Shown here: positions 23,826-53,828 of the stretch, one piece after another | Layout: every line of letters begins with the position of its first letter | Numbering within the stretch: the first letter of the stretch is position 1 | DNA from: Dehalococcoidia bacterium | GTDB taxonomy: Bacteria > Chloroflexota > Dehalococcoidia > Lucifugimonadales > UBA3495 | DNA length: 64,000 nucleotides | Assembly (NCBI GenBank): GCA_965208825.1 | Contig: CBDBPP010000002.1 | Location: 229,854 to 293,853, forward strand | Reading direction: 5' to 3' | Position numbers and translations under genes: made by a program | Notes under the pieces: generated by a model | Told to the model about the DNA's origin: nothing | The model's database searches: none | The model's input: only the letters and a program-made list of their open reading frames with translations

Positions 23826-25103
23826 TTATTCCTCGTCGTATGGCTCGAAATCGCTGAAGGTCATGCCTGCGAACAGTCCGGGATAAAGAATCTGCGCCAC
23901 CACCTCGATGCCCCTGACATTCCAGTGCGACAGCGTCGTGAATCGCTTCGACCCCACCACGTGGATCCTCTCGTCGACGATGGCCGGCACCTCCGCTAGC
24001 GCCGGGTGCGCCAGCAGGTCCGCCCGCAGTGATTCTCCACCCTCGCCCGACTGGGTGATAAAAATCACCTGGGGATTCAACGCTGCCACCGATTCGATGC
24101 TGACCTTTTGTATACCCTCGATTCCATCACGGGCCGCGGTATTAGTACCCCCGGCCGCCTCCATGATACCCCCAACGGTGGTGTCCTTGCCCGGCACGTA
24201 CAGCGTTTCCGAGTATCGCGTTATGGACATCGTATTCGGACGGCTGGCGTCCCCTGCCGGTGGCACCACATCGGTGATCGTATCGAGCCTGCTCCGAATC
24301 TCAGCGACCAGTTCCAGGGCCCGGTCCTCGACGCCCAGCATGTAACCGTAGAGCAGTATGTTCGGTATGTTTCCCTCCGAGGAGTTCTCCAGGGCCGGAC
24401 GCGCCACCGGCACACCCGCCTCCCTGATCAGGCTGACTATGTCCTCCTTGGTGCTCTTGGAGGCAATGAACAGGTCCGGTTCCTGTGCGAGGACGTTCTC
24501 CGCGCCCTTCTCGTAGACCTCCAGCCCCTCCACGCGGTCTGCCACGTTGGAATAGGCCGCGTTCCCCGTAAATTTTCCGATGGCCGCAATCCGGTCCCGG
24601 GGCAACAGGGACAGCAGGATCTCGTCGTGTCCCAGGGAATAGGTCAACACCCTTTGGGGCGGCTCTTCCAGCGTGATCCGTCCCTCTATGGTCTCAATCT
24701 CCCTTGGCCACCCCGTGTTCGACGGATCGACTATGCCCGGCACAGCCGGGTACGGCACCTCCGTCGGCGGCGGCGGCGCCGTGGGCTGGGGAGTACTCGT
24801 CGGCACTGCCGTGGCCGTCGGTACGACGGGCCCGGATTTCGAGGGTGTGGCGAGCGCCTCCGTGGGCGCCTCCGTCGGTTGTGGCAACGGCGTGTTCGTG
24901 GGTGCCGTCGTAGCCGTGGGTTCCGCAGTGGGAGCCTCCGGTGTACTCGTGGGAGCAGGCGCCTCGGTGGCCGCGATCATCGCGGTCGGCACCGCCGTGG
25001 CCGTTGACGCCCCTTCACCGCCGCACGCCAGCGCCCCGATAGCCAACAGCGACAATATCACCAGCCAAATTGCCGTACTCGCCCCATTCCTGACTGTAAT
25101 CAT
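23826..25103 (-). CDS. btuF: periplasmic-binding-protein-type substrate-binding lipoprotein (BtuF-like)
   Basis: Lipobox LLAIGALACGG and a roughly 110-aa Pro/Thr/Ala-rich linker. This is followed by a class III SBP core (RVLTYSLGHDEILLSLLPRDRIAAIG...EPDLFIAS). Confidence 0.8.
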   Translation of the reverse strand: MITVRNGASTAIWLVILSLLAIGALACGGEGASTATAVPTAMIAATEAPAPTSTPEAPTAEPTATTAPTNTPLPQPTEAPTEALATPSKSGPVVPTATAVPTSTPQPTAPPPPTEVPYPAVPGIVDPSNTGWPREIETIEGRITLEEPPQRVLTYSLGHDEILLSLLPRDRIAAIGKFTGNAAYSNVADRVEGLEVYEKGAENVLAQEPDLFIASKSTKEDIVSLIREAGVPVARPALENSSEGNIPNILLYGYMLGVEDRALELVAEIRSRLDTITDVVPPAGDASRPNTMSITRYSETLYVPGKDTTVGGIMEAAGGTNTAARDGIEGIQKVSIESVAALNPQVIFITQSGEGGESLRADLLAHPALAEVPAIVDERIHVVGSKRFTTLSHWNVRGIEVVAQILYPGLFAGMTFSDFEPYDEE

Positions 25104-25173: not shown

Positions 25174-26202
25174 CTAAAGCATCGATGCCCGCGCCTTGTT
25201 TCGCGCCAGCAGCATCAGGAAGAATGGGGCGCCGACCAGGGCTGTTATTATCCCCACGCTCACCTCGGCAGGCGCGATCACCATCCTGGCCAGCGTATCC
25301 GCCGCCAGCAGAAAGATCGCGCCGCCCAAAGCGCTCAGGGGTATCAGCACCCGGTTGTCAGCCCCCGCGACCAGTCGCAGCGCGTGCGGGACAATCAGCC
25401 CCACGAAGGCGATTGTCCCGGAGAACGCCACCGCCGTCCCGGTAATCAGGGAGGCCGCCGCCAGCAGCGAGTTCCGGGTGAGATTCACCCGGACCCCCAG
25501 CGAACGCGCCTCGTCCTCGCTCACCATCAGCAGGTTCAGGTCCCTCGACAGGAACACCGCCACGGCGACACCGAACAGCACGAACGGCAGAGCCAGCCGG
25601 ACCTCCCCCCAGCGCGATGCGTCCAGCCCGCCGGCCAGCCAGAACAGCATGTCCCGCTGGGCCTCCAGGTTCTCCGTGAACAGGATGATGGCGGAGATGA
25701 TGGCCGCGACGAACGCTCCCACGGCAATCCCCGACAGCAGCAGGGCCGACATGGAGAATCGTCCGCCAACCGAGGCCACCGCGTACACCAGCGCCAGTGT
25801 GCCGCCCGCCCCCAGGAACGACATGCCCGGCAGGGCCAGCGCGAAAGCCGCCTGCGCTCCCGTCGATATCGCCACGATCGCCCCCAGCGCCCCTCCCGCG
25901 GACACACCGATGATGCCCGGATCGGCCATCGGGTTTCGGAACAGGCCCTGCATAACGGCGCCCGATACCCCCAGCGCGGCTCCCACCAGCAGGGTCAGCG
26001 CGATCCGCGGCAGCCGTACGGAAGCAACGATAGCCTGCTCGGTCTGTGGGGCCGTGGCCTCGCCCACTCCGACCTGGGCCAGCAGGATATCCAGGGTATG
26101 GGTCAGGGGAATCGTGAAGGGGCCCAGCGCCACCGCGACGATCACCAGCGCCAGTCCGACTACCAGAAGGGGAACTGCCCCCGCGGCGAGTCTCAACAGC
26201 AC
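25174..26202 (-). CDS. btuC: FecCD-family ABC permease (BtuC-like)
   Basis: RLPRIALTLLVGAALGVSGAVMQGLFRNPMADPGIIGVSAGG motif. The start is uncertain (GTG 26202 or TTG 26235). The track start 26400 is excluded because a terminator hairpin lies inside that extension. Confidence 0.85.
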   Translation of the reverse strand: MLLRLAAGAVPLLVVGLALVIVAVALGPFTIPLTHTLDILLAQVGVGEATAPQTEQAIVASVRLPRIALTLLVGAALGVSGAVMQGLFRNPMADPGIIGVSAGGALGAIVAISTGAQAAFALALPGMSFLGAGGTLALVYAVASVGGRFSMSALLLSGIAVGAFVAAIISAIILFTENLEAQRDMLFWLAGGLDASRWGEVRLALPFVLFGVAVAVFLSRDLNLLMVSEDEARSLGVRVNLTRNSLLAAASLITGTAVAFSGTIAFVGLIVPHALRLVAGADNRVLIPLSALGGAIFLLAADTLARMVIAPAEVSVGIITALVGAPFFLMLLARNKARASML

Positions 26203-26326
26203 GGGAGACCAGCCGATGGCCGGTGAGCGCTTCAACCAGCTCAGGTAGAGCCGCGCAATCTGCCTGCCGATGGGCTGCCTTTCCTCGTCGGAGCGCAGGT
26301 TCGTCGCCCCTGACCGCGCTGTGTGC

Positions 26327-26361
26327 AAAACAAAATCCCCGCCGCCTTCGCCGCGACGGGG
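26327..26361 (-). terminator. riboswitch expression-platform terminator
   Basis: Minus strand reads CCCCGTCGC-GGCGAAG-GCGGCGGGG followed by ATTTTGTTTT. Confidence 0.7.
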
Positions 26362-26404
26362 ACTGCCCTTTAGACCTGCAGCCCCCCTGCGGGCCTGCAC
26401 TGTA

Positions 26405-26615
26405 CCTGAGCACTCCGCAGACGAAGAGCAACCGCTCAGTTCAGCCCGGCAGGTCTCCTGGCTCCCGGATCATCGCCTCTTCCGCGCCTTCCCATCCACC
26501 TGGCGGACAGTGGCTACAGCGGCTGGCTCCCCGGTCACAGTGGCGCCTCCGCAACGGATTTTCACCGCTTTCCCTTGTGCACCCGTTTATCGTGTGCGCC
26601 GTGCTGATCAATCTG
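26405..26615 (-). promoter_or_regulatory. cobalamin (B12) riboswitch
   Basis: The minus strand carries GGGAAAGCGGTGAAAATCCG, GCCACTGT, GGGAAGGCG and the B12 box AGCCAGGAGACCTGCC (plus coords 26448-26463). Confidence 0.9.
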
Positions 26616-26628
26616 GATATTTTTAGCG

Positions 26629-28122: not shown

Positions 28123-28177
28123 GGATGGCGCGTCCCAGACTCTTTTGGGTCGGGTCGCCCGTTTAAAAACTGATTTT

Positions 28178-28300
28178 CCGCCCGGTGAATCGACCTCGAT
28201 TGCTTCAGGGGAAGGCGGTGAAAACCCGCCACGGTTGCGCCACTGTGATCGGATACCGGACTGAGACCGGGTCCGTAAGTCAGGAAACCTGTCCGGGTGG
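28178..28300 (+). promoter_or_regulatory. cobalamin (B12) riboswitch
   Basis: P1 pairs CCGCCCGG with CCGGGTGG. Also present are GGGGAAGGCGGTGAAAACCCGCC, GCGCCACTGT and the B12-box-like AGTCAGGAAACCTGTCC (28278-28294). Confidence 0.88.
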
Positions 28301-28364
28301 ACGTGCTCTACTTCTGCGCTCAACAGAAAGGCACTCGAGAGAAGTGGCCTGTCCCTTGGGGACC

Positions 28365-29188: not shown

Positions 29189-32100
29189 ATGCAGCAACAG
29201 AAATCCATCCTGTTCATAACCACCGCCGACACGGACATCCTGACGGCGGATAGGGCCTTGGCGTCCTTGCCCGAAGGCATCCCGGGGGTTGTCGGTCTGA
29301 ACCCTACGACCCTGGGCAAGTCAGCCGGCGATGGCAACGGCCACCCGGCCGATGACATCCTGTCCCATGCCGCCAACGCCGGCGTTGTGGTGCTCCGGCT
29401 CCTGGGCGGAAAGCGCGCCATGGCCGATGGCTTCGACCCGTTGGTCCGCCACTGCCGCAGCCAGGGCATTCCGCTCATCGCCTGCCCCGGCCACCAGGAG
29501 TGGGATGAGGACCTGGTCACCGCCTGCACCGCCCCCGTCGCCGAGGTTGAGACCGTATTCGCCTACCTTATGCAGGGCGGCGTCCAGAATTTCCAGAACC
29601 TGTTCCTGTTCCTGAGCGACACCTACTTCGGAACCGATCACGGCCACGAGGCCCCCGCGCCCCTGCCGTGGGAGGGCGTATACCATCCCGACGTCGCCGA
29701 TGGTACCGATGTCCAGTCCTACGTCGCCCAGCGTTTCCTGCCCGGTCGCCCCTCCATCGGTATCCTGTTCTACCGCGCCCATTGGATGAGCGGCAACCTG
29801 CTGCCCATTGACGCCCTCGTTCGAAGCCTGGAGGCCAAGGGAGCCAACGTGCTGCCGGTCTACGCCTTCAGCCTGAAGCACAGCCCGGAGGATGACGGGA
29901 AGCGTCCCGGAGGAGCTGGAGCGGAGCGCCCGCCAGTAGGCAACCGCGCCTTCACCGAGTACCTGGTGGCTCCCGACGGTACTCCCCGCATCCAGTGCAT
30001 CGTCAACACCATGGGCATGTCCATGGGTGAGCTGAGCCAGGAGGGACCGGCCATCGCCACCGGCTGGTCGGTGGACTACCTAGAATCCCTCAACGTCCCC
30101 ATGCTGCAGGCCATCATCAGCACCGGCAACCAGCAGGAGTGGCTGGACAGCGAACTTGGCCTGGGCCCCATCGACACCGCCATGAGCGTGGCCCTGCCCG
30201 AGTTCGACGGCCGCCTGATCACCGTGCCCATTTCCTTCAAGGAGGAGGTCAACGCCGGCCCCGTGCCTCCTGAGCGCGTCGAAGGACGGGGGCCGGCGAA
30301 CAGCGGGCTGTCCGGTAGCCTTCAGCGCTATGTCCCTCGCCAGGACCGCATCGAGTTGGTAGCCCGGCTGGCCATCAAGCAGGCCAACCTGGCGCTGAAG
30401 CCTAATTCGGAAAAGAAAATCGCCGTCATCCTCAGCAATTACCCTACCAAGGACGCCCGTATCGGCAATGCCGTCGGCCTCGACACCCCGGCCTCCGCCG
30501 TGCTGGTGTTCAACGCCCTCAAGGACGCGGGATACAAGGTCACCGACATACCGGAGACCGGCGACGAACTGGTCCATCGCATTATCGAGCGGTGCAGTAA
30601 CGACCGGGACTCCCTGACCGAGGATCAGTTGCGTCTCGCCGCCGGGCACGTCCCGTCCGCTCTGTATCGCGACTGGTTCGCTACCTTCCCTGACGACGTT
30701 ACCGGGGAACTGTCCCGCGACTGGGGCGAGCCGCCCGGGCGGGTGTACCGCACTACCGCGGAGGGCCTGCGGGGCGCCCCCGCCAACGGCGCGGATGGCC
30801 TGGCCATCGCCGGCATCGACCTCGGCAACGTGTTCGTGGGCTTGCAGCCCCCGCGCGGGTTCGGAGAGAACCCCATCGCCATCTACCACAGCCCAGACCT
30901 GGCTCCCACCCATCACTACATCGCCTATTACCGCTGGGTGCGTGACGTCTTCGGCGCCGACGCCATCCTGCATCTCGGGAAGCACGGTACCCTGGAATGG
31001 CTGCCCGGCAAGGGTATCGGCCTCTCCCCTTCCTGCTACCCCGAGGTGGCCATGGACGATGTGCCGCTCTTCTACCCGTTCATCATCAACGACCCCGGCG
31101 AAGGCTCCCAGGCCAAGCGCCGCGCTCACGCCACCATCGTCGACCACATGATTCCGTCCATGACCACCGCCGACAGCTACGGCGACATCGCACGGATCGA
31201 GCAGTTGATGGACGAGCATTATCAATGCCAGACCCTCGACCCGGCCAAGCTGCCCCTGCTAGAGACCCAGATTTGGGAGATGGTGCAGCAGGCGGAACTC
31301 CACCGCGACCTAGGCATCGACTCCCAGCCTGAAGACTTCGGCGAGTTCATTCTCGAGATCGACGGCTACCTATGCGAGCTCAAGGACGCCCAGATCAAGG
31401 ACGGCCTGCACATCCTCGGCGACACCCCCCAGGGCGAGCAGCTCATTGGCCTGCTCTGCGCCCTCACCCGTCTCGACATCAGCGGCGTTCCCAGTTTGCG
31501 ACGTTCCGTGTCGGAGGCGCTGGGCTTCGACTATGCCAGGCTGACCGAAGACCTTGGCGAAGCCCCCACAGTTCCCTCTCCCCCAGCGGGAGGGTTAGGA
31601 TGGGGACGTATCCAGGCCCTCGACGAGGACACTCCCGTCCGCACCAATGGCGACGTGCTCGAACGTGTCGAGTTGCTCTGCCGCCGGTTGTACCGCGAAA
31701 TGCTCGAACACGGCTTCCGCTCCGCCGACGCCCCCTCTGCCGTGGCCCGCGTGCTGGGCTCGCCGGACGCCCGGACAAGTTCCGTGCTGGAGTACGTTGC
31801 GGACACGGTCTACCCGGCCCTCATGCGTACCCCCGACGAGATTGGCAACCTGCTTCGCGGACTCGAGGGAAAATACGTCCCCGCCGGACCCAGCGGTGCG
31901 CCAACCCGCGGCATGGCCAACATCCTGCCCACCGGCCGCAACTTCTACTCGGTGGACCCGAAGTCCATCCCCTCGCCCGCCGCCTGGGAAACCGGTAAGC
32001 AGCTGGCCGATTCTCTGTTGGACAAGTATCTCCGGGAAGAGGGTGCCTACCCGGAGATGGTCGGCCTCGTCGTCTGGGGCAGCTCCGCCATGCGCACCCA

Positions 32101-33190
32101 CGGCGACGACATCGCCCAGATCCTCCACCTCCTCGGCGTCCGGCCCACGTGGCAGGCCGAGAGCCGCCGGGTGCTGGGACTGGAGGTCATCCCGCTGGAG
32201 GAACTCGGCAGGCCCCGCATCGACGTGACCATCCGCATCAGCGGCTTCTTCCGCGACGCCTTCCCTAACCTGATCGCCCTGCTCGACCAGGCCGTGGAGC
32301 TGGTGGCCTCGCTGGACGAGTCGGCCGAGAACAACTACATCGTAAAGCACCTGCGTGAAGACCTGGCTGACACCGCAAATCGTCATTCCAGCGAAAGCGG
32401 GAATGCGGGGGACGGGGAGAGCATCGCCGACCGGTCTTCCTCCCTCTACCGCATCTTCGGCAGCAAGCCCGGTACCTACGGCGCGGGCATCCTGCCGGTG
32501 CTGGACGAGCGCAACTGGGAAACGGTCCAGGACCTTGCCGAGGTCTACACCGCCTGGGGCGGCTACGCCTACACCCGGCAGGAACACGGCGTGAACGCCC
32601 GCCCGCAGTTCCGCCGCCGGTTCGGCCAGATCGTGGTCGCCGCCAAGAACCAGGACACCCGCGAGCACGACATTTTCGACAGCGATGACTACATGCAGTA
32701 CCACGGCGGTATGATTGCCACCGTGCGGGCGCTGAGCGGGCGCAGCCCCCGACAGTTCTTCGGCGACAGCTCCGATCCCTCCCGGGCCCGTAACCGGGAC
32801 CTCCAGGACGAGGCGAGGCGGGTATTCCGCAGCCGCGTGGTCAATCCCAAGTGGATTGACTCCATGAAACGCCATGGCTATAAGGGCGCTTTCGAGCTGG
32901 CCGCGACCGTGGACTACATGTTCGGCTATGACGCCACCGCTCAGGTCATCGACGACTGGATGTACGAGGACGTGACCGAGAGCTACGTCCTTGACCCGGA
33001 GACCCAGCAGTTCTTTCAGCAGAGCAACCCATGGGCCCTGAGGGGCATTGTGGAACGGCTGCTGGAAGCCATCGAGCGGGGTCTGTGGCAGGACCCGCCG
33101 CCCGAAATTCGCGAGAAACTGCAGCAACTGTACCTTGATCTGGAAGCCGACCTGGAAGCCCGCCAGGAGGTCCCTGCAGGTCGGCAATAG
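29189..33190 (+). CDS. cobN: cobaltochelatase subunit CobN
   Basis: 1333 aa, with the CobN/ChlH hallmark LHLGKHGTLEWLPGKG. B12-riboswitch context with cbtAB and a ChlI/D partner. Confidence 0.92.
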   Translation: MQQQKSILFITTADTDILTADRALASLPEGIPGVVGLNPTTLGKSAGDGNGHPADDILSHAANAGVVVLRLLGGKRAMADGFDPLVRHCRSQGIPLIACPGHQEWDEDLVTACTAPVAEVETVFAYLMQGGVQNFQNLFLFLSDTYFGTDHGHEAPAPLPWEGVYHPDVADGTDVQSYVAQRFLPGRPSIGILFYRAHWMSGNLLPIDALVRSLEAKGANVLPVYAFSLKHSPEDDGKRPGGAGAERPPVGNRAFTEYLVAPDGTPRIQCIVNTMGMSMGELSQEGPAIATGWSVDYLESLNVPMLQAIISTGNQQEWLDSELGLGPIDTAMSVALPEFDGRLITVPISFKEEVNAGPVPPERVEGRGPANSGLSGSLQRYVPRQDRIELVARLAIKQANLALKPNSEKKIAVILSNYPTKDARIGNAVGLDTPASAVLVFNALKDAGYKVTDIPETGDELVHRIIERCSNDRDSLTEDQLRLAAGHVPSALYRDWFATFPDDVTGELSRDWGEPPGRVYRTTAEGLRGAPANGADGLAIAGIDLGNVFVGLQPPRGFGENPIAIYHSPDLAPTHHYIAYYRWVRDVFGADAILHLGKHGTLEWLPGKGIGLSPSCYPEVAMDDVPLFYPFIINDPGEGSQAKRRAHATIVDHMIPSMTTADSYGDIARIEQLMDEHYQCQTLDPAKLPLLETQIWEMVQQAELHRDLGIDSQPEDFGEFILEIDGYLCELKDAQIKDGLHILGDTPQGEQLIGLLCALTRLDISGVPSLRRSVSEALGFDYARLTEDLGEAPTVPSPPAGGLGWGRIQALDEDTPVRTNGDVLERVELLCRRLYREMLEHGFRSADAPSAVARVLGSPDARTSSVLEYVADTVYPALMRTPDEIGNLLRGLEGKYVPAGPSGAPTRGMANILPTGRNFYSVDPKSIPSPAAWETGKQLADSLLDKYLREEGAYPEMVGLVVWGSSAMRTHGDDIAQILHLLGVRPTWQAESRRVLGLEVIPLEELGRPRIDVTIRISGFFRDAFPNLIALLDQAVELVASLDESAENNYIVKHLREDLADTANRHSSESGNAGDGESIADRSSSLYRIFGSKPGTYGAGILPVLDERNWETVQDLAEVYTAWGGYAYTRQEHGVNARPQFRRRFGQIVVAAKNQDTREHDIFDSDDYMQYHGGMIATVRALSGRSPRQFFGDSSDPSRARNRDLQDEARRVFRSRVVNPKWIDSMKRHGYKGAFELAATVDYMFGYDATAQVIDDWMYEDVTESYVLDPETQQFFQQSNPWALRGIVERLLEAIERGLWQDPPPEIREKLQQLYLDLEADLEARQEVPAGRQ
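31574..31606. repeat. family B hairpin repeat embedded in-frame in cobN
   Basis: CCCTCTCCCCCAGCGGGAGGGTTAGGATGGGGA resembles the intergenic copies CCCTCTC(CC)TTGAGGGAGAGGGTTAGGGTGA at 47211 and 50833. It is translated as PSPPAGGLGWG. Confidence 0.7.
32381..32406. repeat. family A hairpin repeat embedded in-frame in cobN
   Basis: CGTCATTCCAGCGAAAGCGGGAATGC differs by one base from the intergenic unit. It is translated as RHSSESGNA. Confidence 0.75.
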
Positions 33191-33964: not shown

Positions 33965-34133
33965 AACGGCCTGGCTAGCGCCAGACCCTTACCGTCTGGT
34001 CCGGGGAAGGTTGGACCCTTCCCCCGCTGGTGCGGCGGGCATTTCACAAAGGGGACCACATCCGGTTGCTACCTCTTAACTTTTAGGCGGGTAGCCGCAT
34101 GAGAACGGCTACGGAAATGAATGGAGGGTGCAG

Positions 34134-34910
34134 ATGAAACGGCTTCTCGTTACCTCGGTGATTGTGGGTATTATCGCCGGCCTTCTTGTTGGTGGGTTCT
34201 ATAACCTGTTCCAGGTGCCAGTGATGGAACGGGCCATTGCCCTTGAGGAGGAGCGTTCCGCCTCGGTTACTCCGGCCGGCGCTGAGGAGGAAGAGGAAGA
34301 GGGCATCCCCATCTCCCTCGGCATTCAGCGCATCGGTATGGTCATTGCCATGGGCATCTACGGCGCCATCCTCGCGCTGTTCTTCTCCGTCGGCTTCGTC
34401 CTGCTTCACCGCGTTGCCCCCGATTGGCCTGTGGTCTGGGTGGCCCTGGCCGTCGGGGCCCTGGGTTTCTGGAGCCTCTCTCTGTTCCCGTTCATCAAGT
34501 TCCCTCTCAACCCGCCCGGAGTCGGCGATGAGGCGACTCTCCTTTCCCGCCAGCTCGGGCAGACCCTGTTCATGCTTATTTCCGCCGTCGCCGTTGGCGT
34601 TGCCCTCGAAGCCGTCCGCCGCATCAACCAGAACATTGCGGAACTCGCCTCCCGTCGCTTGTGGTACGCCGGAGTGCTGGGCATCTATGCCGCCCTGGCA
34701 CTGATCATAGTGTTCGCTATCCCCGGAAACCCCGACCCCGTGCCCGTTCCCATCGACCTGTTGGAGCTGTTCCGCGCCCTTACCATGGTCGGCCAGTTCC
34801 TGTTGTGGACCCTTCTGGCGGTCGGCGTAACCCTGGCGCTGCTGTGGCATCAGCGCACCGAGGCATCTCGCGCCGGCGTGCCCTCGACCGCCGCTGGCTA
34901 TGCTCAGTGA
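34134..34910 (+). CDS. cbtA: cobalt transporter subunit CbtA
   Basis: Polytopic membrane protein immediately after cbtB. ATG 34134 lies 6 nt after GGAGGG. The track start is GTG 34128. Confidence 0.75.
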   Translation: MKRLLVTSVIVGIIAGLLVGGFYNLFQVPVMERAIALEEERSASVTPAGAEEEEEEGIPISLGIQRIGMVIAMGIYGAILALFFSVGFVLLHRVAPDWPVVWVALAVGALGFWSLSLFPFIKFPLNPPGVGDEATLLSRQLGQTLFMLISAVAVGVALEAVRRINQNIAELASRRLWYAGVLGIYAALALIIVFAIPGNPDPVPVPIDLLELFRALTMVGQFLLWTLLAVGVTLALLWHQRTEASRAGVPSTAAGYAQ

Positions 34911-34940: not shown

Positions 34941-37103
34941 ATGACCGCTAGCCCGACGCAGGAACGCCGGGAGCCGCGTTTTCCCTTCACCGCCATCGTC
35001 GGGCAGACGGCGATGAAACGGGCTCTGGTGCTCAACGCCGTCAACACCCGCATCGGCGGCGTGCTAATCCGCGGCAAGAAGGGCACCGCCAAGTCCACCG
35101 CCGTGCGCTCCCTGGCTGCCCTGCTGCCGGAGGTCTCTGTCGTTCGTGGCTGCCCCTACAGTTGCCACCCCGACAATCCCCAGCCGCTCTGCGCTCACGG
35201 AAAAGAGACCTCGCCCGTAACCCGCCAGGTGCGCATCGTGGACCTCCCCGTGGGGGCGACCGAAGACCGGCTGGTCGGCTCCCTGGACATCGAGCAGGCC
35301 ATCCGCACCGGCAGCCGCAGCTTCGAGCCCGGCCTCATCGCCGCCACCCACCGGGGCATCCTGTACGTGGACGAGGTCAACCTGCTCAACGACCACCTGG
35401 TCGACGTGCTCCTGGACGCCGCCGCCATGGGCCGCAACTACGTGGAGCGCGAGGGCATCTCCGTCAGCCACGCCGCCGAGTTCATCCTGGTCGGCACCAT
35501 GAATCCAGAGGAGGGCGACCTGCGACCCCAGCTCCTCGACCGATTCGGTCTGGCCGTGGAGGTCGACAGCGCCTTTACCCCCGAGGAGCGGCGGGAGGTC
35601 GTTAGGCGCCGCATCGAGTATGAGGCCGACCCCTTCGCGTTCATGGACGTCTGGCAGGAGTCCGAGGCCGCCGAGCGGGAGCGCATCCTCCGCAGCCAGC
35701 AGCTTCTCGACCAGGTCACCGTGGGCGACGAAATCCTGGAACTCATCACCGGCATCTGCGCCGAGTACCAGGTCGACGGCCTGCGCGCCGACATCGTGAT
35801 GTACAAGACCGCCGGCACCATCGCCGCCTACGAGGGCCGCGACCATGTCATCGCCGACGATGTCCGCGAAGCCGCCGAGATGGCCCTGTTGCACCGCCAG
35901 CGCCGCCAGCCCTTCCAGCAGCCCCACCTGGTCACGGAACAGCTCGACTCCATGATCGACGAGTTCCAGAACCGCCCCCAGGATCGTGAACCCCAGGACC
36001 GCGAGCACTCGCAGTCCGACGAGCAGGACGACTCGGACCCCGACTCACCTGACCCGGACCCGTCTGACCCGGAAGAGCAGTCCCCTGACTCGCCCGGCGA
36101 CGCCGGCCCCCAGGACCAGTATTTCGAGGTCGGCAACCCATTCTCCGTTCGTTCCCTTCAGGTCCAGCCGCCCGATAGCCGTGCCCGGCCCTCCGGCGGC
36201 CGCCGCGCCCGCACCGTCAGCGGCTCACCCTCCGGGCGATACGTCGGCGCCGCCGTGCCCCGGGATGAGGCCACCGACCTGGCCCTGGACGCCACCCTGC
36301 GTGCTGCCGCACCCTACCAGCGGCAGCGTCGCGACTCCCTCTTACACGGCCCCGAGGTCGACGACGCTCCCGCGTTCCTGATCGAACCCTGGGACGTACG
36401 CGAAAAGGTGCGCGAGACCAAGACCGGCAGCCTGGTCCTCTTCGTGGTCGACGCCAGTGGCTCCATGGGTGCCCAACGCCGCATGGTCGCCGTCAAGGGC
36501 GCCATCCTCTCCCTGCTGCTCGATGCCTACCAGCGCCGCGACCGGGTTGGGCTCATCGCCTTCCGAGGGACCGGAGCGCAGGTCCTGCTGCCCCCCACCT
36601 CCAGCGTCGACCTGGCCCACGCCATGCTGCAGGAGATGCCCACCGGGGGCCGCACGCCCCTCAGCCGGGGGCTGCTGCTGGCCATGGAAGTTATCGATGC
36701 GGAGCGCCAGAAAGACCGCAACGTCCTGCCGCTGCTCGTGGTGCTGTCCGACGGCCGCGCCAACGTCGCCATGGGGGATTCCGCTGGTCCTGCGGATACT
36801 CCCCTTCATCCTGAGCCTGTCGAAGGACGCACCAGCCTCCCCCTCGCCGAGGCCCGTGCCATCGCCGCGGCCATCGGGGAGCAACACATCTCCTCCGTCG
36901 TTGTCGACACCGAGACCGACTTCCTGCGCCTCGGGCTGGCAAAGACCATTGCCGAGGCCATGGGCGCTCCCTGCATCAAGCTGGAGGAACTGCACGCCGA
37001 CGGTCTCGCCGACGCGGTGCGGATGCAGCTACCAGACTCGGATTCGTCGCTCCTCTCTCCAGACGAGATCCAGGACCTGCTGCAGCGCATCCGGCTGCCT
37101 TAG
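34941..37103 (+). CDS. fused ChlI/ChlD-type AAA+ / vWA chelatase subunit
   Basis: N-terminal AAA+ domain (GKKGTAKST, LYVDEVNLL), an acidic Pro-rich linker and a C-terminal vWA domain with MIDAS VVDASGSMG. Probable ATPase partner for CobN. Confidence 0.88.
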   Translation: MTASPTQERREPRFPFTAIVGQTAMKRALVLNAVNTRIGGVLIRGKKGTAKSTAVRSLAALLPEVSVVRGCPYSCHPDNPQPLCAHGKETSPVTRQVRIVDLPVGATEDRLVGSLDIEQAIRTGSRSFEPGLIAATHRGILYVDEVNLLNDHLVDVLLDAAAMGRNYVEREGISVSHAAEFILVGTMNPEEGDLRPQLLDRFGLAVEVDSAFTPEERREVVRRRIEYEADPFAFMDVWQESEAAERERILRSQQLLDQVTVGDEILELITGICAEYQVDGLRADIVMYKTAGTIAAYEGRDHVIADDVREAAEMALLHRQRRQPFQQPHLVTEQLDSMIDEFQNRPQDREPQDREHSQSDEQDDSDPDSPDPDPSDPEEQSPDSPGDAGPQDQYFEVGNPFSVRSLQVQPPDSRARPSGGRRARTVSGSPSGRYVGAAVPRDEATDLALDATLRAAAPYQRQRRDSLLHGPEVDDAPAFLIEPWDVREKVRETKTGSLVLFVVDASGSMGAQRRMVAVKGAILSLLLDAYQRRDRVGLIAFRGTGAQVLLPPTSSVDLAHAMLQEMPTGGRTPLSRGLLLAMEVIDAERQKDRNVLPLLVVLSDGRANVAMGDSAGPADTPLHPEPVEGRTSLPLAEARAIAAAIGEQHISSVVVDTETDFLRLGLAKTIAEAMGAPCIKLEELHADGLADAVRMQLPDSDSSLLSPDEIQDLLQRIRLP

Positions 37104-37116
37104 TACCAGAAACTAG

Positions 37117-37190
37117 TGGCTGCCCCGCCTGGGCTCGAACCAGGGATTTCAGCTCCAAAGGCTGACGTGCTACCGCTACACCACGGGGCA
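37117..37190 (-). tRNA. tRNA-Gln (anticodon UUG)
   Basis: Minus strand reads TGCCCCGTGGTGTAGCGGTAGCACGTCAGCCTTTGGAGCTGAAATCCCTGGTTCGAGCCCAGGCGGGGCAGCCA. It has a 7-bp acceptor stem with U1-A72, anticodon stem TCAGC/GCTGA, loop CTTTGGA, a T-arm GGTTCGAGCC and an encoded CCA. Confidence 0.9.
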
Positions 37191-38334: not shown

Positions 38335-38363
38335 AACCCGTCATTCCCGCGAAAGCGGGAAGG
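38335..38363. repeat. family A hairpin repeat abutting the IS30 end
   Basis: AACCCGTCATTCCCGCGAAAGCGGGAAGG, with a degenerate half-copy at 38278-38300. Confidence 0.75.
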
Positions 38364-39351
38364 TGGATTCACATTTCAAGTGCAACACCTGGTATGAATG
38401 GAATTCGGATGGTGTGAGGTAACCCAGGGACTTGCGAGGGGTGTTGTTGTCCGCCTGTGCCAGCTGGATGAGTTCCTGGTCGGAACAGGCAGAGAGGTCT
38501 GTGCGCCGAGGCAAGAACCGGCGCAGGCGTCCGATGCGGTTTTCCACTGCGCCCTTCTGCCAAGGGGAACGCACATCGCAGAAGAAGGTTTCCACACCCA
38601 GTTGGTGGAGTTGGTAATGCTGGGCGAACTCGGTACCATTGTCAAAGGCGACGGAGCGGCGCCAGTGGTCTGGGAAAGGGGCCAGTATCCCGACCATCGC
38701 CTGGGCCACGGGCTGGGCTGCTTTGCCGGGCAGACGGGCCATGGCCAGCAGCCTGGAGTGGCGCTCGGTCATGACCAGCAGGGCCTGACCCTTGTTGCCG
38801 AAGAGCATCAGGTCAGCCTCCCAGTGTCCCGGTTCGTGGCGGTCGGCCGCCTCCGGGGGCCGCTCCGAGAGGGGGCGGCGATGGGCGATGAAAGAGGCGG
38901 GGCTGCCTCCCTTGCGTCCCCTGCGACCGCGCTTGGACTTGCCCCTGGGGAGGTAATAACGCCAGCTGTAGTCCTTGGTCCTGCGGATCTGGGCATAGGT
39001 GAAACGGTAGATACTCTCGTGGGATATGACGCTGCGGCCGGATTCCAGGGCAAGGCGTCCGGCCACCTGTTGGGGAGACCAGCCCGCCTGGAGCCGGCCC
39101 ATGACCTGTTCCCGCAGGACGGGATCGCGGTCCAGGCGGGAGCCGGTCCAGCGGCGAGCCTGGGCCTGCTGCTGGGCATAGGATGGCCGGTAACCCTGGG
39201 TCTTGGAGCCATTGCGTTTCAATTCCCTAGCCACTGTCGATGGCGAGCGATCCAGACTTGCCGCGATTTGCCGGATCGGGTATCCCTCGGTGTGTAGACG
39301 GGCCAATTCACATCTTTCCTCAATGGTGAGGTGCCAATATCCAGTTCCCAT
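38341..39351 (-). CDS. IS30-family transposase
   Basis: HTH IRQIAASLDRSPSTVARELKRN and DDE region EPGHWEADLMLFG. The ORF runs through the terminal IR and stops 26 nt outside it, inside the flanking hairpin repeat. Confidence 0.88.
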   Translation of the reverse strand: MGTGYWHLTIEERCELARLHTEGYPIRQIAASLDRSPSTVARELKRNGSKTQGYRPSYAQQQAQARRWTGSRLDRDPVLREQVMGRLQAGWSPQQVAGRLALESGRSVISHESIYRFTYAQIRRTKDYSWRYYLPRGKSKRGRRGRKGGSPASFIAHRRPLSERPPEAADRHEPGHWEADLMLFGNKGQALLVMTERHSRLLAMARLPGKAAQPVAQAMVGILAPFPDHWRRSVAFDNGTEFAQHYQLHQLGVETFFCDVRSPWQKGAVENRIGRLRRFLPRRTDLSACSDQELIQLAQADNNTPRKSLGYLTPSEFHSYQVLHLKCESTFPLSRE

Positions 39352-39910: not shown

Positions 39911-42634
39911 TCATGACAGCGCCGCCCGCACCAGCCCAGGCACCGCATTCAGGGCCTCGTCCAGCTTCTCCGGCTGCCGTCCCCCCGCCTGGGCCATATC
40001 CGGGCGTCCGCCACCTCCGCCGCCCATCAGCGTCGCCGCGTCCCGTGCGATACTGCCGGCGTTCAGGCCCCGCTCGACCAGGTCCGGCGTAACCATCGCC
40101 ACCAGGATGGGACTGCCCTCGGCCAGGGCTCCCAGCGTGACCACGCAGCTGGAAAGCTTGTCCCGCAAGTAGTCCCCCATCTCCCTCATGCCGTCCGCGT
40201 TGTGGGCAGACGTGCGGCCCGCCACCACCCGGACGCCCTCCACGTCCGCCACCCGCTGCAGCAGAGCCTCCGCCTCCGACCTCAGCAGCGAGCGCTCCAG
40301 CGCCGTCAGCCGCCGCCGCAGGTCGTCCGTCTCCTGCATGTACGAGTCCAGCCGCGACTCCAGCTCGGCCACCGGAGTCTGCAGCCGCTGCGACAGCGTC
40401 TCCAGCGTCGCCGTCTGCTCCACGAACAACGCCTCCGCCGCCCGGCCGGTCAGTGCCTCCACGCGCCTCATGCCACCCCCGATGCTGGACTCACCCAGCA
40501 CCAGTAGCGTCCCCACCTGCCCCGTGGCCCCCACGTGAGTCCCGCCACACACCTCGAAGCTGAAGGGCTCCTCCACATCCTCCGCCATCTTCACCACCCG
40601 CACCACGTCGCCGTACCGGTCGCCGAAGAAAGCCAGCGCTCCCTGTCGCACCGCCTCGGCATATGAGGTCTCCTGCGCCGAGACCAGCAGATTGGCCCGC
40701 ACCTTCTCGTTGGCCAGCGACTGCACCTCCAGCAGTTCTTCCCTGGTCATCCGGCCCACATGGCTGAAGTCGAAGCGCAGCCGGTCCGGCGTCACCAGCG
40801 ACCCCGCCTGCCGCACATGCGGCCCCAGCGTCGCCCGCAGGGCCGCGTGCAAGATGTGCGTGCCGCTGTGGTTGCGCGAGGAGTCCAGTCGCCGCGCCAC
40901 ATCCACTGTGGCCGACACAGGGTCTCCCACCGCGATGTGGCCCTCCTCCACAACGCCCCTCTGAACGATCAGCCCGGCCACCGGCGACTGCGTGTCCTCC
41001 ACCCGGAACAGCCCGTTGGGACCGCGGATGTATCCCCGGTCGCCCAGCTGCCCGCCGCCCTCCGCATAGAACGGCGTCTGGCTGATCACCAGCTCCGCCT
41101 GCTGGCCCTGTGTCGCGTGTCCCGAGGACGTTCCATCCACCAGCAGGGCCGCCACCAACGATTCCTGGTCCGTTGACAAGTGGCCGGTGAACTCGGTGCG
41201 TCCCGCCCCCAGGTTCTCGTAGGCGGTCAGCATCTCCATGCTGCCCTCGAAGTGCTGACCGGCCCGGGACTGTTCCCGCTGGTTCTCCATTTCCCGCTCG
41301 AAGCCGGCCATGTCGACGTCCAGCCCGTGCTCGCGGGCGATCTCTGCGGTCAGCTCCGGGGGAAAGCCATAGGTGTCGTACAGCACGAAGGTGTCCCTTC
41401 CCGATATCTCCCCCGCTCCGCCCCCGTTGGAGGCCTGGCCGGCGATCATTTCCAGGAGTATTTCGTTGCCCCTGCCGAACGCCTCCGCGAACCGTTCCTC
41501 CTCCAGGTTGATCACCCGCAGGATGAACCCCCGGTTCTGCGACAGCTCCCCGTAGACCGTCTGGAAACGTGGTATTACCTCCTCCACGACCTCGCCCAGG
41601 AATGGCCCGCTCAGTCCCAGCCGCCTGCCATAGCGAATGGCGCGGCGTATCACCCGCCGCAGCACGTAGCCCCGTCCCTCGTTGCCCGGCACCACGCCGT
41701 CGCCGATGAGAAAGGACGCCGCCCGGGCGTGTTCGGCGATGACACGCAGCGCGAAGTCGGTATCGGTATCGGTGCCGTACACTCGGCCCGTGAGCTGGCA
41801 GGCCTTGGCGATGATCGACGTGAACAGGTCGGTCTCGTAGATGTTGTTCTTGCCCTGCAGGATCACCGCCGCCCGTTCCAGGCCCATGCCGGTGTCCACG
41901 CTGGGGGCGGGCAGGGGCGTCCGGTTGCGCTCCGGGTCCTGGTAGTACTGCATGAACACCAGGTTCCACAGCTCCACGAATCGCTCACAGTCGCAGTTGG
42001 GGTGGCAGCCGTCCACCTCCGAGGGCGCCGCTCCCTCCCGCTCCTCTCGCAGCTGCGCCGTCAGCACGGCCACCTCCACCATCCGGCCGCCGCTGCACCC
42101 CTTCTCCACGCCGCCGTCGTAGTGGATCTCCGAGCACGGTCCCGTCGGCCCCTCTGTCCCTGCCGGCCCCCACCAGTTGTCCTTGTCGCCGTACCGGTAT
42201 ATTCGCTCGGGCGGCACACCGACCTGGTCATGCCAGATGTCGAAGGCCTCGTCGTCGTCCAGGTGAATCGTTACGTATAGCCGGTCCGGCGACAGGCCGA
42301 AGAGCTCCGTAACCAGCTCCCAGGCGAAGGCTACGGCGCCCTCCTTGAAGTAGTCGCCAATGCTGAAGTTTCCCAGCATCTCGAAGAACGTCAGGTGCTT
42401 GTGGTCGCCGACCTCGTCGATATCCGTGGTCCGGAAACTCTTCTGGCTGCTGGTAAGTCTCTGGGAGGGCGGCGTCTGCTCTCCCATGAAGAACGGTTTG
42501 AACGGCACCATTCCGGCGCTGGTGAACAGCAGCGTGGGGTCACCCGCTGGAATGAGCGACGCAGAGGGCATATGCTGGTGCCCCTTGCTCTCAAAATACC
42601 CTATGAAAGAGTCCCTTATCTGGTCGCCATTCAT
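39911..42634 (-). CDS. alaS: alanine--tRNA ligase
   Basis: 907 aa, with FTSAGMVPFKPFF, HKHLTFFEMLGNFSIGDYFK and editing-domain CGGTH. Confidence 0.95.
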   Translation of the reverse strand: MNGDQIRDSFIGYFESKGHQHMPSASLIPAGDPTLLFTSAGMVPFKPFFMGEQTPPSQRLTSSQKSFRTTDIDEVGDHKHLTFFEMLGNFSIGDYFKEGAVAFAWELVTELFGLSPDRLYVTIHLDDDEAFDIWHDQVGVPPERIYRYGDKDNWWGPAGTEGPTGPCSEIHYDGGVEKGCSGGRMVEVAVLTAQLREEREGAAPSEVDGCHPNCDCERFVELWNLVFMQYYQDPERNRTPLPAPSVDTGMGLERAAVILQGKNNIYETDLFTSIIAKACQLTGRVYGTDTDTDFALRVIAEHARAASFLIGDGVVPGNEGRGYVLRRVIRRAIRYGRRLGLSGPFLGEVVEEVIPRFQTVYGELSQNRGFILRVINLEEERFAEAFGRGNEILLEMIAGQASNGGGAGEISGRDTFVLYDTYGFPPELTAEIAREHGLDVDMAGFEREMENQREQSRAGQHFEGSMEMLTAYENLGAGRTEFTGHLSTDQESLVAALLVDGTSSGHATQGQQAELVISQTPFYAEGGGQLGDRGYIRGPNGLFRVEDTQSPVAGLIVQRGVVEEGHIAVGDPVSATVDVARRLDSSRNHSGTHILHAALRATLGPHVRQAGSLVTPDRLRFDFSHVGRMTREELLEVQSLANEKVRANLLVSAQETSYAEAVRQGALAFFGDRYGDVVRVVKMAEDVEEPFSFEVCGGTHVGATGQVGTLLVLGESSIGGGMRRVEALTGRAAEALFVEQTATLETLSQRLQTPVAELESRLDSYMQETDDLRRRLTALERSLLRSEAEALLQRVADVEGVRVVAGRTSAHNADGMREMGDYLRDKLSSCVVTLGALAEGSPILVAMVTPDLVERGLNAGSIARDAATLMGGGGGGRPDMAQAGGRQPEKLDEALNAVPGLVRAALS

Positions 42635-47210: not shown

Positions 47211-47250
47211 CCCCTCTCCCTTGAGGGAGAAAGTTAGGGTGAGGGTGAAC
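47211..47250. repeat. family B repeat
   Basis: CCCCTCTCCCTTGAGGGAGAAAGTTAGGGTGAGGGTGAAC. Confidence 0.75.
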
Positions 47251-47284
47251 CCTCCAACGGGAAAACTCTTACAAGGAAACAAAC

Positions 47285-48058
47285 ATGGCGGCAGTGGACT
47301 ACTCGGTACTGGACGACATCGGCGTCTCGATGAACGCCTTCTACCCCCGCAAGAACTGGTCCTCGGCGCCACCGGGCGCCAGCGACCACTCTGTCGCTGT
47401 AGACGACGGCATCACCCTCTCCGCTCGTTTCTTTCCGGTTTCCGGCGCCGCCCCAACCATACTGTTCTTCTACGGGAACGGCGAGACCTCCAGCGACTAC
47501 ACCAACATCGCTCCCCTGTACAACCAGGCCGGATTGAACTTCTTCGTCGCCTACTACCGGGGCTACGGTCAGAGCACCGGCTGGCCCTCCTTCACCACCA
47601 TGCTGGCCGACTCAGTCAGGGTCCTGGACTACGTCGAAGCTACGCTTGCAGAAGTGGGACAAACGGGCGCCCTGTTCGTCATGGGCCGCTCCATGGGCCG
47701 CCACTCCGCCTTCGAGCTGGCCGCCAACCACGGCAGCCGGTTGGCGGGCGTCATCATCGAGAGCGGCCGCCCCCGCTTGGCCAATTTTGCCCAGGCGTTG
47801 CCGCAGCAGCAGGCCGTGCAGTTGGAAAACGCCTATTTCGCCAAGGTCAGTTCCATTACAATTCCATCGCTGGTCATCCACGGAGAGCAGGACACCCTCG
47901 CGCCGGTAGATCAGGCCGTCGAGATGCACCAAGCCTTCGGGTCCACCGACAAGCGACTGCTCGTTATCCCAGGCGCGGGACACAACGACCTGCTTTACCG
48001 TGGCCTTGACGACTATTTCGCCGCCATCAAGGAATTTACGGGAGCCAGTAAGGAGTAA
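47285..48058 (+). CDS. alpha/beta hydrolase (S9/S33-like)
   Basis: ILFFYGNGE, nucleophile elbow GRSMGR, and HGEQDTLAP with GAGHNDL. Confidence 0.8.
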   Translation: MAAVDYSVLDDIGVSMNAFYPRKNWSSAPPGASDHSVAVDDGITLSARFFPVSGAAPTILFFYGNGETSSDYTNIAPLYNQAGLNFFVAYYRGYGQSTGWPSFTTMLADSVRVLDYVEATLAEVGQTGALFVMGRSMGRHSAFELAANHGSRLAGVIIESGRPRLANFAQALPQQQAVQLENAYFAKVSSITIPSLVIHGEQDTLAPVDQAVEMHQAFGSTDKRLLVIPGAGHNDLLYRGLDDYFAAIKEFTGASKE

Positions 48059-51962: not shown

Positions 51963-52051
51963 GACGCCGCAACCGTAATTGTTGCGTTATTCATTCGTGC
52001 TAGAATGCCCTCGCTCAAGGCACCACCCAGCGAATATTGGCCCGGAATGTG

Positions 52052-53113
52052 ATGTCCCTTAACCGCCGCGCCCGCCAGCACGAGGTCGAAGACCCGCTGG
52101 ACGCCATCGAGGAGTGCTACCGCAACGGTTGGACCGACGGCCTGCCCGTCGTGCCTCCAACTCCCTCGCGGGTCGACGCCATGCTGGCCCACGTCAACCT
52201 CGACCCGGAGCAGGTCCTGGGGGAGGTCCCCGTTCGGCGGCGCGCCCTCACTGCCGAGCTGGCAGCGGCCAACGCAGTGATGGCCGGCTGCCTCCCTGAG
52301 TACTTCCCCGTGGTCCTGGCCACCATGGACGCCATGTTTCAGCACGACCCAAACTGCATCCATGAGGCCTCCGCCGCCACCAATTCTCCCGGCATTCTCA
52401 TCCTGGTCAACGGCCCCATTCGAAAAGACATCGCACTCAACTGCGGAGGCAACCTGTTCAGCCCCGGCCACCGACCCAACGCCACCATCGGTCGCGCCAT
52501 CCGCCTCATACTGATCAACGTGTTCGAGCAGCGTCCCAACGTACTCGACCGTGGTACCATGGGCTCCCTCGCCAAGTATGGAGTCTGCATCGGCGAGGAC
52601 GAGGAACAAAGCCCCTGGGAACCCTTCCACGTTTCCCGTGGCTTCGACTCCGGGCAGTCCACTGTCACCGTGGCCACTGTGCAGGACCCGGAAATGCTGG
52701 GCAACCGCTACGGCGTTACAGCCGAGAGCCTGATGGACGCCACCGCCGATGCCATGGCCAGCCACGGCCTGGGCATATACTTGAACAGCTCGCCTTGGTT
52801 CTGGGTCGTGGGACACTGGCATTCCGAGATGCTGGGCCGCCAGGGCTGGGACCGCCCCAGCATCCAGCACTATATCCACGAGAAAGCCTGGCGGTCCCGT
52901 GCCCGGATGAAGCGCCTTGGTGCCGTCAACGGCTCCATTCAGGATGGCGACGAGGACACCCGGGTTCCGGCTGCCCCCACCCCCGAAAGCATCCTGGTCG
53001 TGAAGGGTGGTGGCGACAGCGGCATTTACAGCGAGCTCATGATGAACTATCACGGCCTGCCGGCCATCACCGTCCCCATCCGCGACTCGTGGAAGGACTT
53101 CCGGGTTGAATAG
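52052..53113 (+). CDS. conserved hypothetical protein
   Basis: Coherent 353-aa ORF with NGWTDGLPVVPPT and AANAVMAGCLPEYFPVV. I recognise no family. The start is ambiguous (TTG 52037, GTG 52049 or ATG 52052). Confidence 0.6.
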   Translation: MSLNRRARQHEVEDPLDAIEECYRNGWTDGLPVVPPTPSRVDAMLAHVNLDPEQVLGEVPVRRRALTAELAAANAVMAGCLPEYFPVVLATMDAMFQHDPNCIHEASAATNSPGILILVNGPIRKDIALNCGGNLFSPGHRPNATIGRAIRLILINVFEQRPNVLDRGTMGSLAKYGVCIGEDEEQSPWEPFHVSRGFDSGQSTVTVATVQDPEMLGNRYGVTAESLMDATADAMASHGLGIYLNSSPWFWVVGHWHSEMLGRQGWDRPSIQHYIHEKAWRSRARMKRLGAVNGSIQDGDEDTRVPAAPTPESILVVKGGGDSGIYSELMMNYHGLPAITVPIRDSWKDFRVE

Positions 53114-53185
53114 AGTTGGGACTCAGGCATCCCGGTCCATCCTTCGGGATCGCCAACACTCCTTCCGCATCTGGGAGATGAGCAA

Positions 53186-53743
53186 ATGACCGCGCCAGCA
53201 ACGCACAGCATCCAGCTGGTGGACCCCACCGGCGCTGACCCCGGCCCCAACCCGCTCACGCTGGCCGGACGGCCCGTGGATCTTCGGGGCAAGCGACTGG
53301 TTCTACTGGACAATTCCAAGGCCAATTCCGATGTCATTATCCGCGGTATCAGCGAGATTCTGAACGACGAGTTCGAGTTCTCCGATGTCCTGTATCTCAA
53401 AAAACACAGCGCCTCCCTGCCTCCCAAACCGGAGATCATGGAGGAGCTCCACCGCCACGCCGACCTGGTGATCACCGGCATCGGCGATTGAGGGGGTTGC
53501 TCGTCGGGCAGTCTGCACGACGGAATTACCCTGGAGCGGTTGGGTTTCCCCACCGCCACCATCATCACCAGCGTGTTCGTCACCACCGCCAGGGCCTATA
53601 CCAAGCTAATGGGCGTGCCCGGCTTCCCCTACATCGTCTGCCCCCATCCCATCACCAACGTCGGCGCCGATGGACTTGACCAGAGAATACAGGAGCTTGC
53701 TCCCCAGGTGTCCCGCCTGTTGCAGGAAGGCACCGTAAACTGA
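53186..53743 (+). CDS. candidate selenoprotein (in-frame UGA at 53489-53491)
   Basis: Track ORFs 53186-53491 and 53540-53743 are in the same frame and the gap between them is open. Read-through gives ...ITGIGD-U-GGCSSGS... A hairpin at 53502-53522 begins 10 nt after the UGA. Confidence 0.5.
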
Positions 53744-53803: not shown

Positions 53804-53828
53804 CGCCATTCCCGCGAAAGCGGGAATG
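53804..53828. repeat. family A hairpin repeat
   Basis: CGCCATTCCCGCGAAAGCGGGAATG. Confidence 0.8.

Follow-up and report, generated by a model that had tools for sequence, protein, structure and literature searches.

The UGSC family is an established group of selenoproteins with a UxxC motif, represented by 255 selenocysteine (Sec) forms versus 21 cysteine forms in the Global Ocean Sampling (GOS) data and counted among the most abundant selenoproteins of aquatic metagenomes (PMC2398784). The family, which includes the 'UGSC-containing protein' of Zhang & Gladyshev (for example, ABI76733.1 from Hyphomonas neptunium) and is listed as NF041046 in PMC13188914, was suggested in the GOS paper to be 'likely Trx-like', that is, thioredoxin-like, and a UGSC/'Unknown_1' fusion was reported from the same data (PMC2398784, Fig. 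S1A). Here we describe a member of this family in a 64,000-nucleotide stretch of DNA from a Dehalococcoidia bacterium (GenBank assembly GCA_965208825.1, contig CBDBPP010000002.1, positions 229,854 to 293,853 of the forward strand), hereafter 'the window'. We read positions 53186..53743 of its plus strand, with high confidence, as one complete UGSC selenoprotein gene in which an in-frame UGA (53489..53491) is recoded, a hairpin immediately downstream (53502..53522) acts as the selenocysteine insertion sequence (SECIS), and the encoded protein is likely a redox partner of the product of the adjacent upstream gene, which we call G (52037..53113).

The reading frame opens at ATG 53186, which stands 6 nt downstream of a Shine–Dalgarno-like GGGAGA (53174..53179, plus strand, from direct reading of the sequence), reaches the TGA at 53489–53491, continues through 16 open codons to TTG 53540 and closes at a final TGA at 53741–53743. 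The resulting read-through product of 185 residues runs ...ADLVITGIGD-U-GGCSSGSLHDGITLE... across the recoded position (surroundings ...HADLVITGIGD-U-GGCSSGSLHDGITLER; motif stretch ITGIGD-U-GGCSSGSLHDG), its Sec being codon 102 and its resolving Cys codon 105 (the residue labels U101 and C104 are also used). The original prediction had joined the open reading frames (ORFs) 53186–53491 and 53540–53743 into 185 codons through the in-frame TGA and had placed the UGA in a U-G-G-C, or U-x-x-C, context; every element of this layout is present, including D-U-G-G-C at 53489. It had also doubted that the downstream piece possesses a start of its own, and this doubt was borne out: the GGAG at 53533–53536 lies just 3 nt before TTG 53540 and therefore does not make a credible ribosome-binding site, while for this clade the databases hold just C-terminal fragments of 65–84 aa. 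The 67-aa 'ORF' at 53540..53743 (plus strand) is an annotation artefact corresponding to the C-terminal third of the selenoprotein.

Family searches were performed with the read-through product in which U was replaced by C. The NCBIfam model NF041046, 'UGSC family (seleno)protein', matched at 130.9 bits (curated cutoff 125) over profile positions 2–146 of 147, and Pfam PF24696, 'UGSC family', matched at 174.9 bits (cutoff 25) over positions 2–171 of 172. Because both matches cross the UGA, the two ORFs encode the two parts of one domain and do not belong to unrelated families, which confirms the family membership that the original prediction had tentatively suggested. In public annotation, the gene is systematically split: nearly all matches in a word-indexed search of 5.8 billion proteins were 101-aa proteins ending exactly at the UGA position, and a search with the C-terminal half matched 65–84-aa fragments only, namely P0247, a 67-aa entry from the contig that holds the window, and 147 others like it, each with PF24696. 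No record of the window's own 101-aa product was found in a protein look-up. Judged by its profile matches, the gene at 53186–53743 is thus a further, mis-annotated member of an already known selenoprotein family.

The UGA is invariant among its relatives. A scan of one genome per species yielded 80 loci, mostly from Dehalococcoidia metagenome-assembled genomes, with some from Candidatus Entotheonella and one from Binatia; codon statistics rest on the 75 distinct sequences among them. The same gene architecture recurs in all 80, and TGA occupies the Sec column in every one, followed by G-G/S-C-S-S-G-S-L-H/L/Y-D-G, with no further in-frame stop in any locus between codons −90 and +81. The 83 codons past the UGA are open and contain many invariant residues, while synonymous sites outside the hairpin vary freely, a combination which shows that this region is translated. 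Five more divergent Sec forms (loci L081, L082 and L084–L086) keep the TGA as well, as do three loci that belong to other phyla. When 1.84 billion cluster representatives were searched exhaustively with phmmer, 1,083 family members were recovered; of the 57 full-length homologues (175–200 aa) that were aligned, at least 90% carry Cys both in the Sec column and in the +3 column (GDCGSC). The expectation that homologues would show Sec or Cys at this column and continue beyond it was therefore borne out in close and distant relatives alike, and UGA 53489 almost certainly encodes selenocysteine. The codon directly before it (53486–53488) is GAT in all 75 distinct Dehalococcoidia-group sequences, with an entropy of 0 versus approximately 0.8 for the remaining Asp codons; L087 and L090 (Rokubacteria, Methylomirabilota) and the divergent L086 have GAC, and L093 from a JGI soil metagenome has GAT. 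The invariance of this GAT may reflect an effect of UGA context on recoding.

Bacterial SECIS (bSECIS) elements have been described by a model that specifies an apical loop of 3–9 nt on an upper stem of 4–16 bp, a G within the first two positions of the loop, with G or U usually next, a UGA-to-loop distance of 16–37 nt and a minimum free energy (MFE) of −7.5 kcal/mol or lower (PMC13188914 Fig. 2A). The candidate SECIS in the window, which lies inside the coding sequence on the plus strand, runs from C53502 to G53522 (CGUCG-G-GCA / GUC / UGC-A-CGACG), begins 10 nt past the UGA and comprises a 5-bp stem, a G·A mismatch, a 3-bp stem and a G-U-C apical loop; in the numbering used here, it pairs from 13–33 to 17–29 (CGUCG/CGACG) and from 19–27 to 21–25 (GCA/UGC), with the mismatch at G18·A28 and the loop at G22-U23-Y24. 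It agrees with all four bSECIS specifications, having a GUC loop, eight pairs plus one G·A mismatch, 19 nt of spacing and a folding energy of −10.5 kcal/mol. The loop has 3 nt, or reads AGUCU if taken as N1-G-U-N-N2, with G first and then U, and the contiguous upper stem above the mismatch amounts to just 3 bp in the window and 7–9 bp in loci with CUC or UGC. Folded alone, the hairpin has a z-score of −2.2, with 7 of 200 shuffles folding as well. The apical motif GCAGTYTGC has no other copy in the window, and its eight extra matches in the loci do not have an in-frame TGA context upstream. Characterized bacterial SECIS elements include those of Escherichia coli fdhF, fdnG and fdoG, and the apical GCAG-GUC-UGCAC of fdhF is probably closely similar to the GCAGUCUGCAC found here.

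Constraint on this hairpin is visible at synonymous sites. Codons +4 to +11 (TCG TCG GGC AGT YTG CAC GAC GGA) are near-invariant among the 75 distinct sequences, with a normalized codon entropy of 0.087 in the block versus 0.713 outside it (Mann–Whitney p = 2.7e-6); the block is the lowest-entropy eight-codon window of the gene, and other, equally conserved residues show codon entropies of 1–2 bits. Of the few substitutions, C32 to U (L026, L065 and L066) and C27 to U (L050) preserve the pair as G-U, A28 to U (L043) replaces the G18·A28 mismatch by a G-U pair, and only L059 has a broken pair. The hairpin is unchanged in L081, at 56% protein identity, and its conserved core (UCG-N-GCA GUN UGC-N-CGA, 53504–53520) is kept in the divergent Sec forms with a true U-G-S-C (40–46% identity to the L081 protein, P0001) as well as in the Rokubacteria and Methylomirabilota loci. 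In these divergent and other-phyla loci, position 18/28 is G·A, G-U or U-A (U18-A28 in L082), the latter two producing perfect stems of 7–9 bp. The hairpin thereby recurs in at least four phyla, in loci from Chloroflexota, Entotheonella, Binatia, Rokubacteria and Methylomirabilota. The evidence for the hairpin as a SECIS is purifying selection on the RNA sequence together with consensus fit, as read from the aligned loci, and not compensatory evolution. The original prediction of a SECIS-like hairpin 10 nt past the UGA thus stands as far as position, published specifications and synonymous-site constraint are concerned, whereas the covariance-model check that it had proposed, run with the Rfam SECIS models, returned no match.

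To place the protein structurally, we used an AlphaFold (AF2) model of P0001, the 56%-identical homologue recorded with Trp in place of Sec, built from a 58-sequence alignment. The model (predicted local distance difference test (pLDDT) 87, predicted template modelling score (pTM) 0.81) is a (βα)5 domain of alternating strands and helices, in which the Sec position falls at the β3-to-α3 junction, at a helix N-terminus, and the second Cys follows one helical turn later. Its Foldseek matches in the PDB, at template modelling (TM) scores of 0.4–0.56, include lumazine and riboflavin synthases, FMN reductase, NQO1, a REC domain, PTS IIB and the C-terminal domain of NagZ; the top 50 PDB matches are all flavodoxin-like or Rossmann-like, with no thioredoxin fold among them. 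The UGSC product has no match to a thioredoxin-family Pfam model, and PDB sequence and profile searches returned nothing for it. On this model, the UGSC fold is predicted to be flavodoxin-like, not thioredoxin-like as the literature suggests, and would correct that assumption.

The conserved neighbour of the UGSC gene is G, a 358-aa gene at 52037..53113 on the plus strand (start TTG 52037, although the true start may be ATG 52052), which ends 72 nt upstream of the UGSC gene. G has no Pfam or NCBIfam match even at E up to 1; its homologues, at least 7,877 in number and approximately 345 aa long, are all unnamed and form a highly conserved family with the motifs GW-DGLPVVPPT, AANAVMAGC-PE-FPVV, RANATIGRA and ENE-SPW. 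In 79 of the 80 loci it immediately precedes the UGSC gene on the same strand, and it is the only neighbour retained in more distant loci, the comparison of neighbourhoods having revealed no third conserved gene of the module. Look-ups that started from G in three other lineages found split UGSC ORFs directly after it in all three, overlapping by 4 nt in two and abutting in the third. The sole locus of the 80 without a G homologue by tblastn within 6 kb is L047 (Candidatus Entotheonella sp. DD2, approximately 6001–6525), unlike the Entotheonella loci L049 and L051, which do carry G. Near the pair, different lineages have genes for hydrolases, an SDR, an MFS transporter, a 4HBT thioesterase, DinB and RidA-like proteins.

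The two genes are joined not only by synteny but also by fusion. At least ten natural fusions of 500–660 aa combine a Cys-form UGSC domain with a G-like domain, as in P0446, whose residues 314–647 align with G over 341 aa (38% identity, E = 5e-66). Other fusions attach UGSC to a NifU-like CxxC domain (PF01106) or to a pyridine-nucleotide-disulfide oxidoreductase (PF07992): the NifU-like domain, of approximately 70 aa (C-x-x-C-L-V-P), recurs at either end of UGSC or UGSC-plus-G proteins (P0382, P0446, P0405 and P0378), and in P0465 a thioredoxin-reductase-like flavoprotein domain takes its place. By the nature of these fused domains, the NifU-like and disulfide-oxidoreductase partners point to thiol/selenol redox chemistry, and the NifU-like and thioredoxin-reductase-like modules may be the electron donors of the system. 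In the window, a terminator-like hairpin at 51968..51986 (plus strand), a pattern match from a consensus scan, separates G from the upstream Questin-oxidase-like gene, and a second terminator-like hairpin, ATTCCCGC-GAAA-GCGGGAAT followed by GTAATTT, can be read from the sequence 3′ of the UGSC stop at 53808..53827 (plus strand), where the consensus terminator scan made no call (weak U-tract). These two putative hairpins suggest that G and UGSC form a two-gene transcription unit of their own.

Structural comparison of G yielded candidates that we rejected. Its own model (pLDDT 82, pTM 0.84) drew Foldseek matches to class I Fe-S fumarate hydratase and to the Toblerone-fold cyclic amide hydrolases at probabilities of 0.5–0.9, but with TM scores of 0.21–0.29 and root-mean-square deviations of 11–17 Å these are too weak, and PDB sequence and profile searches gave only spurious matches, to de novo designed TIM barrels along a single helix-rich stretch. 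The cysteines C27, C85 and C136, invariant in this clade of G, were considered as Fe-S ligands; this role was rejected for the whole family because they are not conserved in the fused homologues.

A number of observations weigh against the reading of this locus as a Sec-inserting gene with a SECIS and a redox partner. The case for Sec insertion in this organism is sequence-based; no selA, selB or selD was detected in the window, in which 20 of the larger ORFs were scanned, and no tRNA-Sec was found in the window or in 60 related loci. The NF041046 score exceeds its cutoff by 6 bits only, and the motif is U-G-G-C instead of U-G-S-C. The folding of the hairpin is unremarkable in context (z = −1.4 over 47 nt and −0.35 over 81 nt), so folding energy alone is weak evidence, and it is the comparison of loci that supplies a signal above chance. 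Covariation does not rise above controls, with 379 of 500 shuffles reaching the observed values in an 18-sequence alignment, the helix being too invariant for compensatory changes to show, as four of its pairs never vary. No Rfam SECIS model matched 53440–53600 at the gathering threshold or at E up to 10, the sole Rfam match there being a chance snoRNA, and a lower stem proposed by the MFE fold (GGGG at +3..+8 with CCCU at +39..+44) was rejected, as no register is consistently paired and none shows covariation. On the protein side, the UGSC structure was predicted for P0001, with Trp at the Sec position, and not for the protein of the window, and the G fold has no convincing solved relative, the best TM score being 0.29.

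The absence of covariation, of an Rfam match and of an exceptional in-context z-score would also fit a view in which the invariance at 53501–53524 reflected something other than a SECIS, such as a regulatory RNA, a protein-binding site, a translational pause or an extreme codon preference, with Sec insertion relying on another element. We consider this very unlikely. The invariant block exactly matches a stable hairpin, which has the canonical spacing from the UGA and a loop that starts G-U; the few substitutions it tolerates (U in place of C32, C27 or A28, as well as U18-A28 in L082) keep or improve pairing; and no other conserved structure is evident downstream. Codon bias in particular is unlikely because the three Ser codons of the block are fixed yet different (TCG, TCG and AGT), while Ser codons elsewhere vary freely.

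A second explanation accepts read-through but not Sec, with the UGA being read as another residue through a reassigned code (UGA as Trp or Gly, codes 4 and 25) or through SECIS-independent, near-cognate read-through. It draws support from P0001, the sole apparently full-length close homologue, which shows W at the Sec column. However, the DNA of P0001 (L081, ENA contig k141_1283860, 78–710) reads TGA there, and its true-stop TGA was likewise rendered as W and read through into a false 26-residue tail, so this entry was translated with genetic code 4 (TGA as Trp), the wrong code. In the window, TGA is the ordinary stop of 15 of the 45 well-supported genes, and the genetic code is therefore standard. 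Distant homologues, moreover, align Cys, in a CxxC, and not Trp or Gly, the frozen hairpin directly after the UGA fits the bSECIS model, and the family is a recognized selenoprotein family; we accordingly regard a residue other than Sec as very unlikely.

That the gene is instead a pseudogene, in which a nonsense mutation or sequencing error struck a Cys (TGC/TGT) or Trp (TGG) codon and translation ends at 53489, would fit the 101-aa product annotated by gene callers everywhere and the missing Sec-insertion genes of the window, but it is effectively refuted and carries a negligible probability. All 80 independent genomes, and other phyla too, have this TGA, and it is not credible that each of them acquired a mutation or error separately at the one codon; the 83 downstream codons, moreover, are open and under strong purifying selection.

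For the preferred reading of a single UGSC selenoprotein gene, the proposed mechanism follows established bacterial Sec decoding, in which SelB and Sec-tRNA(Sec) act at a UGA. The hairpin at 53502–53522 would recruit SelB carrying Sec-tRNA(Sec) to the ribosome, and Sec would be inserted at UGA 53489 during translation. Redox-active selenenylsulfide centres classically have a UxxC at a helix N-terminus, and from this geometry together with the redox fusion partners we infer that the UGSC protein cycles between selenol/thiol and selenenylsulfide states in the service of G. Most likely it would serve the product of the presumably co-transcribed G, which is enzyme-sized and of an undescribed family, as a small redox-active subunit or carrier, and the two proteins would be expected to interact physically. 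More specifically, and tentatively, with somewhat less than even confidence, we propose that G and UGSC constitute a widespread, undescribed two-component redox enzyme in which the flavodoxin-like UGSC subunit, through its Sec-x-x-Cys, exchanges reducing equivalents, or else a covalent selenide intermediate, with a catalytic site in G. If so, one of the most abundant environmental selenoprotein families gains a defined partner and a directly testable function.

These results have practical consequences for annotation and for the study of the family. The Sec-form members of this clade are apparently all recorded in public databases as two unrelated 'hypothetical proteins' (101 aa, and 65–84 aa), and a simple repair rule, an N-terminal PF24696 fragment ending in GD-TGA and followed by GxCSSGS, would mend hundreds of records. 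The near-invariant SECIS core provides a convenient probe for Sec forms of UGSC across phyla. That UGSC is strictly paired, and repeatedly fused, with a very large, uncharacterized family offers a concrete handle on its function, and the G family deserves a family definition of its own.

Elsewhere in the window, a filter that required coding-like G+C content at third codon positions on both sides of an in-frame TGA passed 17 candidates, including the UGSC gene. Another, TGA 34908, which joins 34128–34910 and 34941–37103, was examined as a second selenoprotein and rejected: the two parts are separate genes, CbtA and a ChlI/ChlD-type (Mg/Co-chelatase ATPase-VWA) chelatase, that share a frame by chance. 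The 15 other candidates fall in frames that overlap known genes or run antisense to them and were likewise discarded. The CbtA (34128–34910) and chelatase (34941–37103) genes belong, with CobN (29189–33190), to the plus side of a cobalamin and cobalt region in which two cobalamin riboswitches, at 26431–26618 (minus strand) and 28166–28311 (plus strand), score 101 and 54.5 bits and face outward into the respective genes; on the minus side these are a FecCD-type permease (25174–26400), a periplasmic binding protein (23826–25103) and CobD (20110–21075). An IS30-like transposase (38341–39351, minus strand; HTH_38 and rve integrase core) adjoins tRNA-Gln (37117–37190, minus strand) and lies upstream of the alanyl-tRNA synthetase gene (39911–42634, minus strand). 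Two further coding-like ORFs on the plus strand have no Pfam family, one at 4758–5777 (339 aa) at E up to 1e-5 and the other at 47285–48058 or 47221–48009 (approximately 260 aa), of which 47221–48009 was scanned at E up to 1.

GrdA of glycine reductase and PrdB of D-proline reductase, small redox selenoprotein subunits of multi-protein reductases, offer an analogy: UGSC, too, is small, has its Sec and Cys three residues apart and probably works with a larger protein; the existence of UGSC family members fused to a thioredoxin-reductase-like flavoprotein adds to the likeness, which extends to the working principle only. UGSC is unrelated to these proteins in sequence and family, with no GRDB or GrdA Pfam match and no sequence match in the PDB, and neither G nor its neighbourhood resembles the grd or prd operons. 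The hairpin shares with described bSECIS elements its position in the coding region right 3′ of the UGA, its small loop starting G-U, its UGA-to-loop distance of 19 nt and an energy below −7.5 kcal/mol. It differs in its 3-nt loop, in a conserved G·A mismatch (G-U in other clades) that replaces the bulged U of fdhF, in a sequence unusually invariant across phyla and in having no Rfam match. With the UGSC/'Unknown_1' fusions, the locus and its relatives share a UGSC domain joined to a conserved domain of undescribed function, at least ten such G-type fusions being found here, whereas in the window G and UGSC are two neighbouring genes, G preceding UGSC, and the fusions have UGSC first; 'Unknown_1' may correspond to the G domain. 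Compared with the UGSC family as described, the gene of the window agrees in its full-length domain match, in Sec within a UxxC at the same column, in the Cys of non-Sec homologues, and in its standalone form of approximately 180 aa. It departs from it in the motif, which is U-G-G-C in the window and in 79 of 80 related loci (L039 alone has U-G-S-C) versus U/C-G-S-C, in the predicted flavodoxin-like fold versus the 'likely Trx-like' one (PMC2398784), and in its distribution, this clade coming from Dehalococcoidia, Entotheonella, Binatia and Rokubacteria and the family having been described from marine and freshwater plankton. The gene family itself was thus already known; new here are the G–UGSC module, a predicted fold other than thioredoxin and a putative SECIS core kept across phyla.

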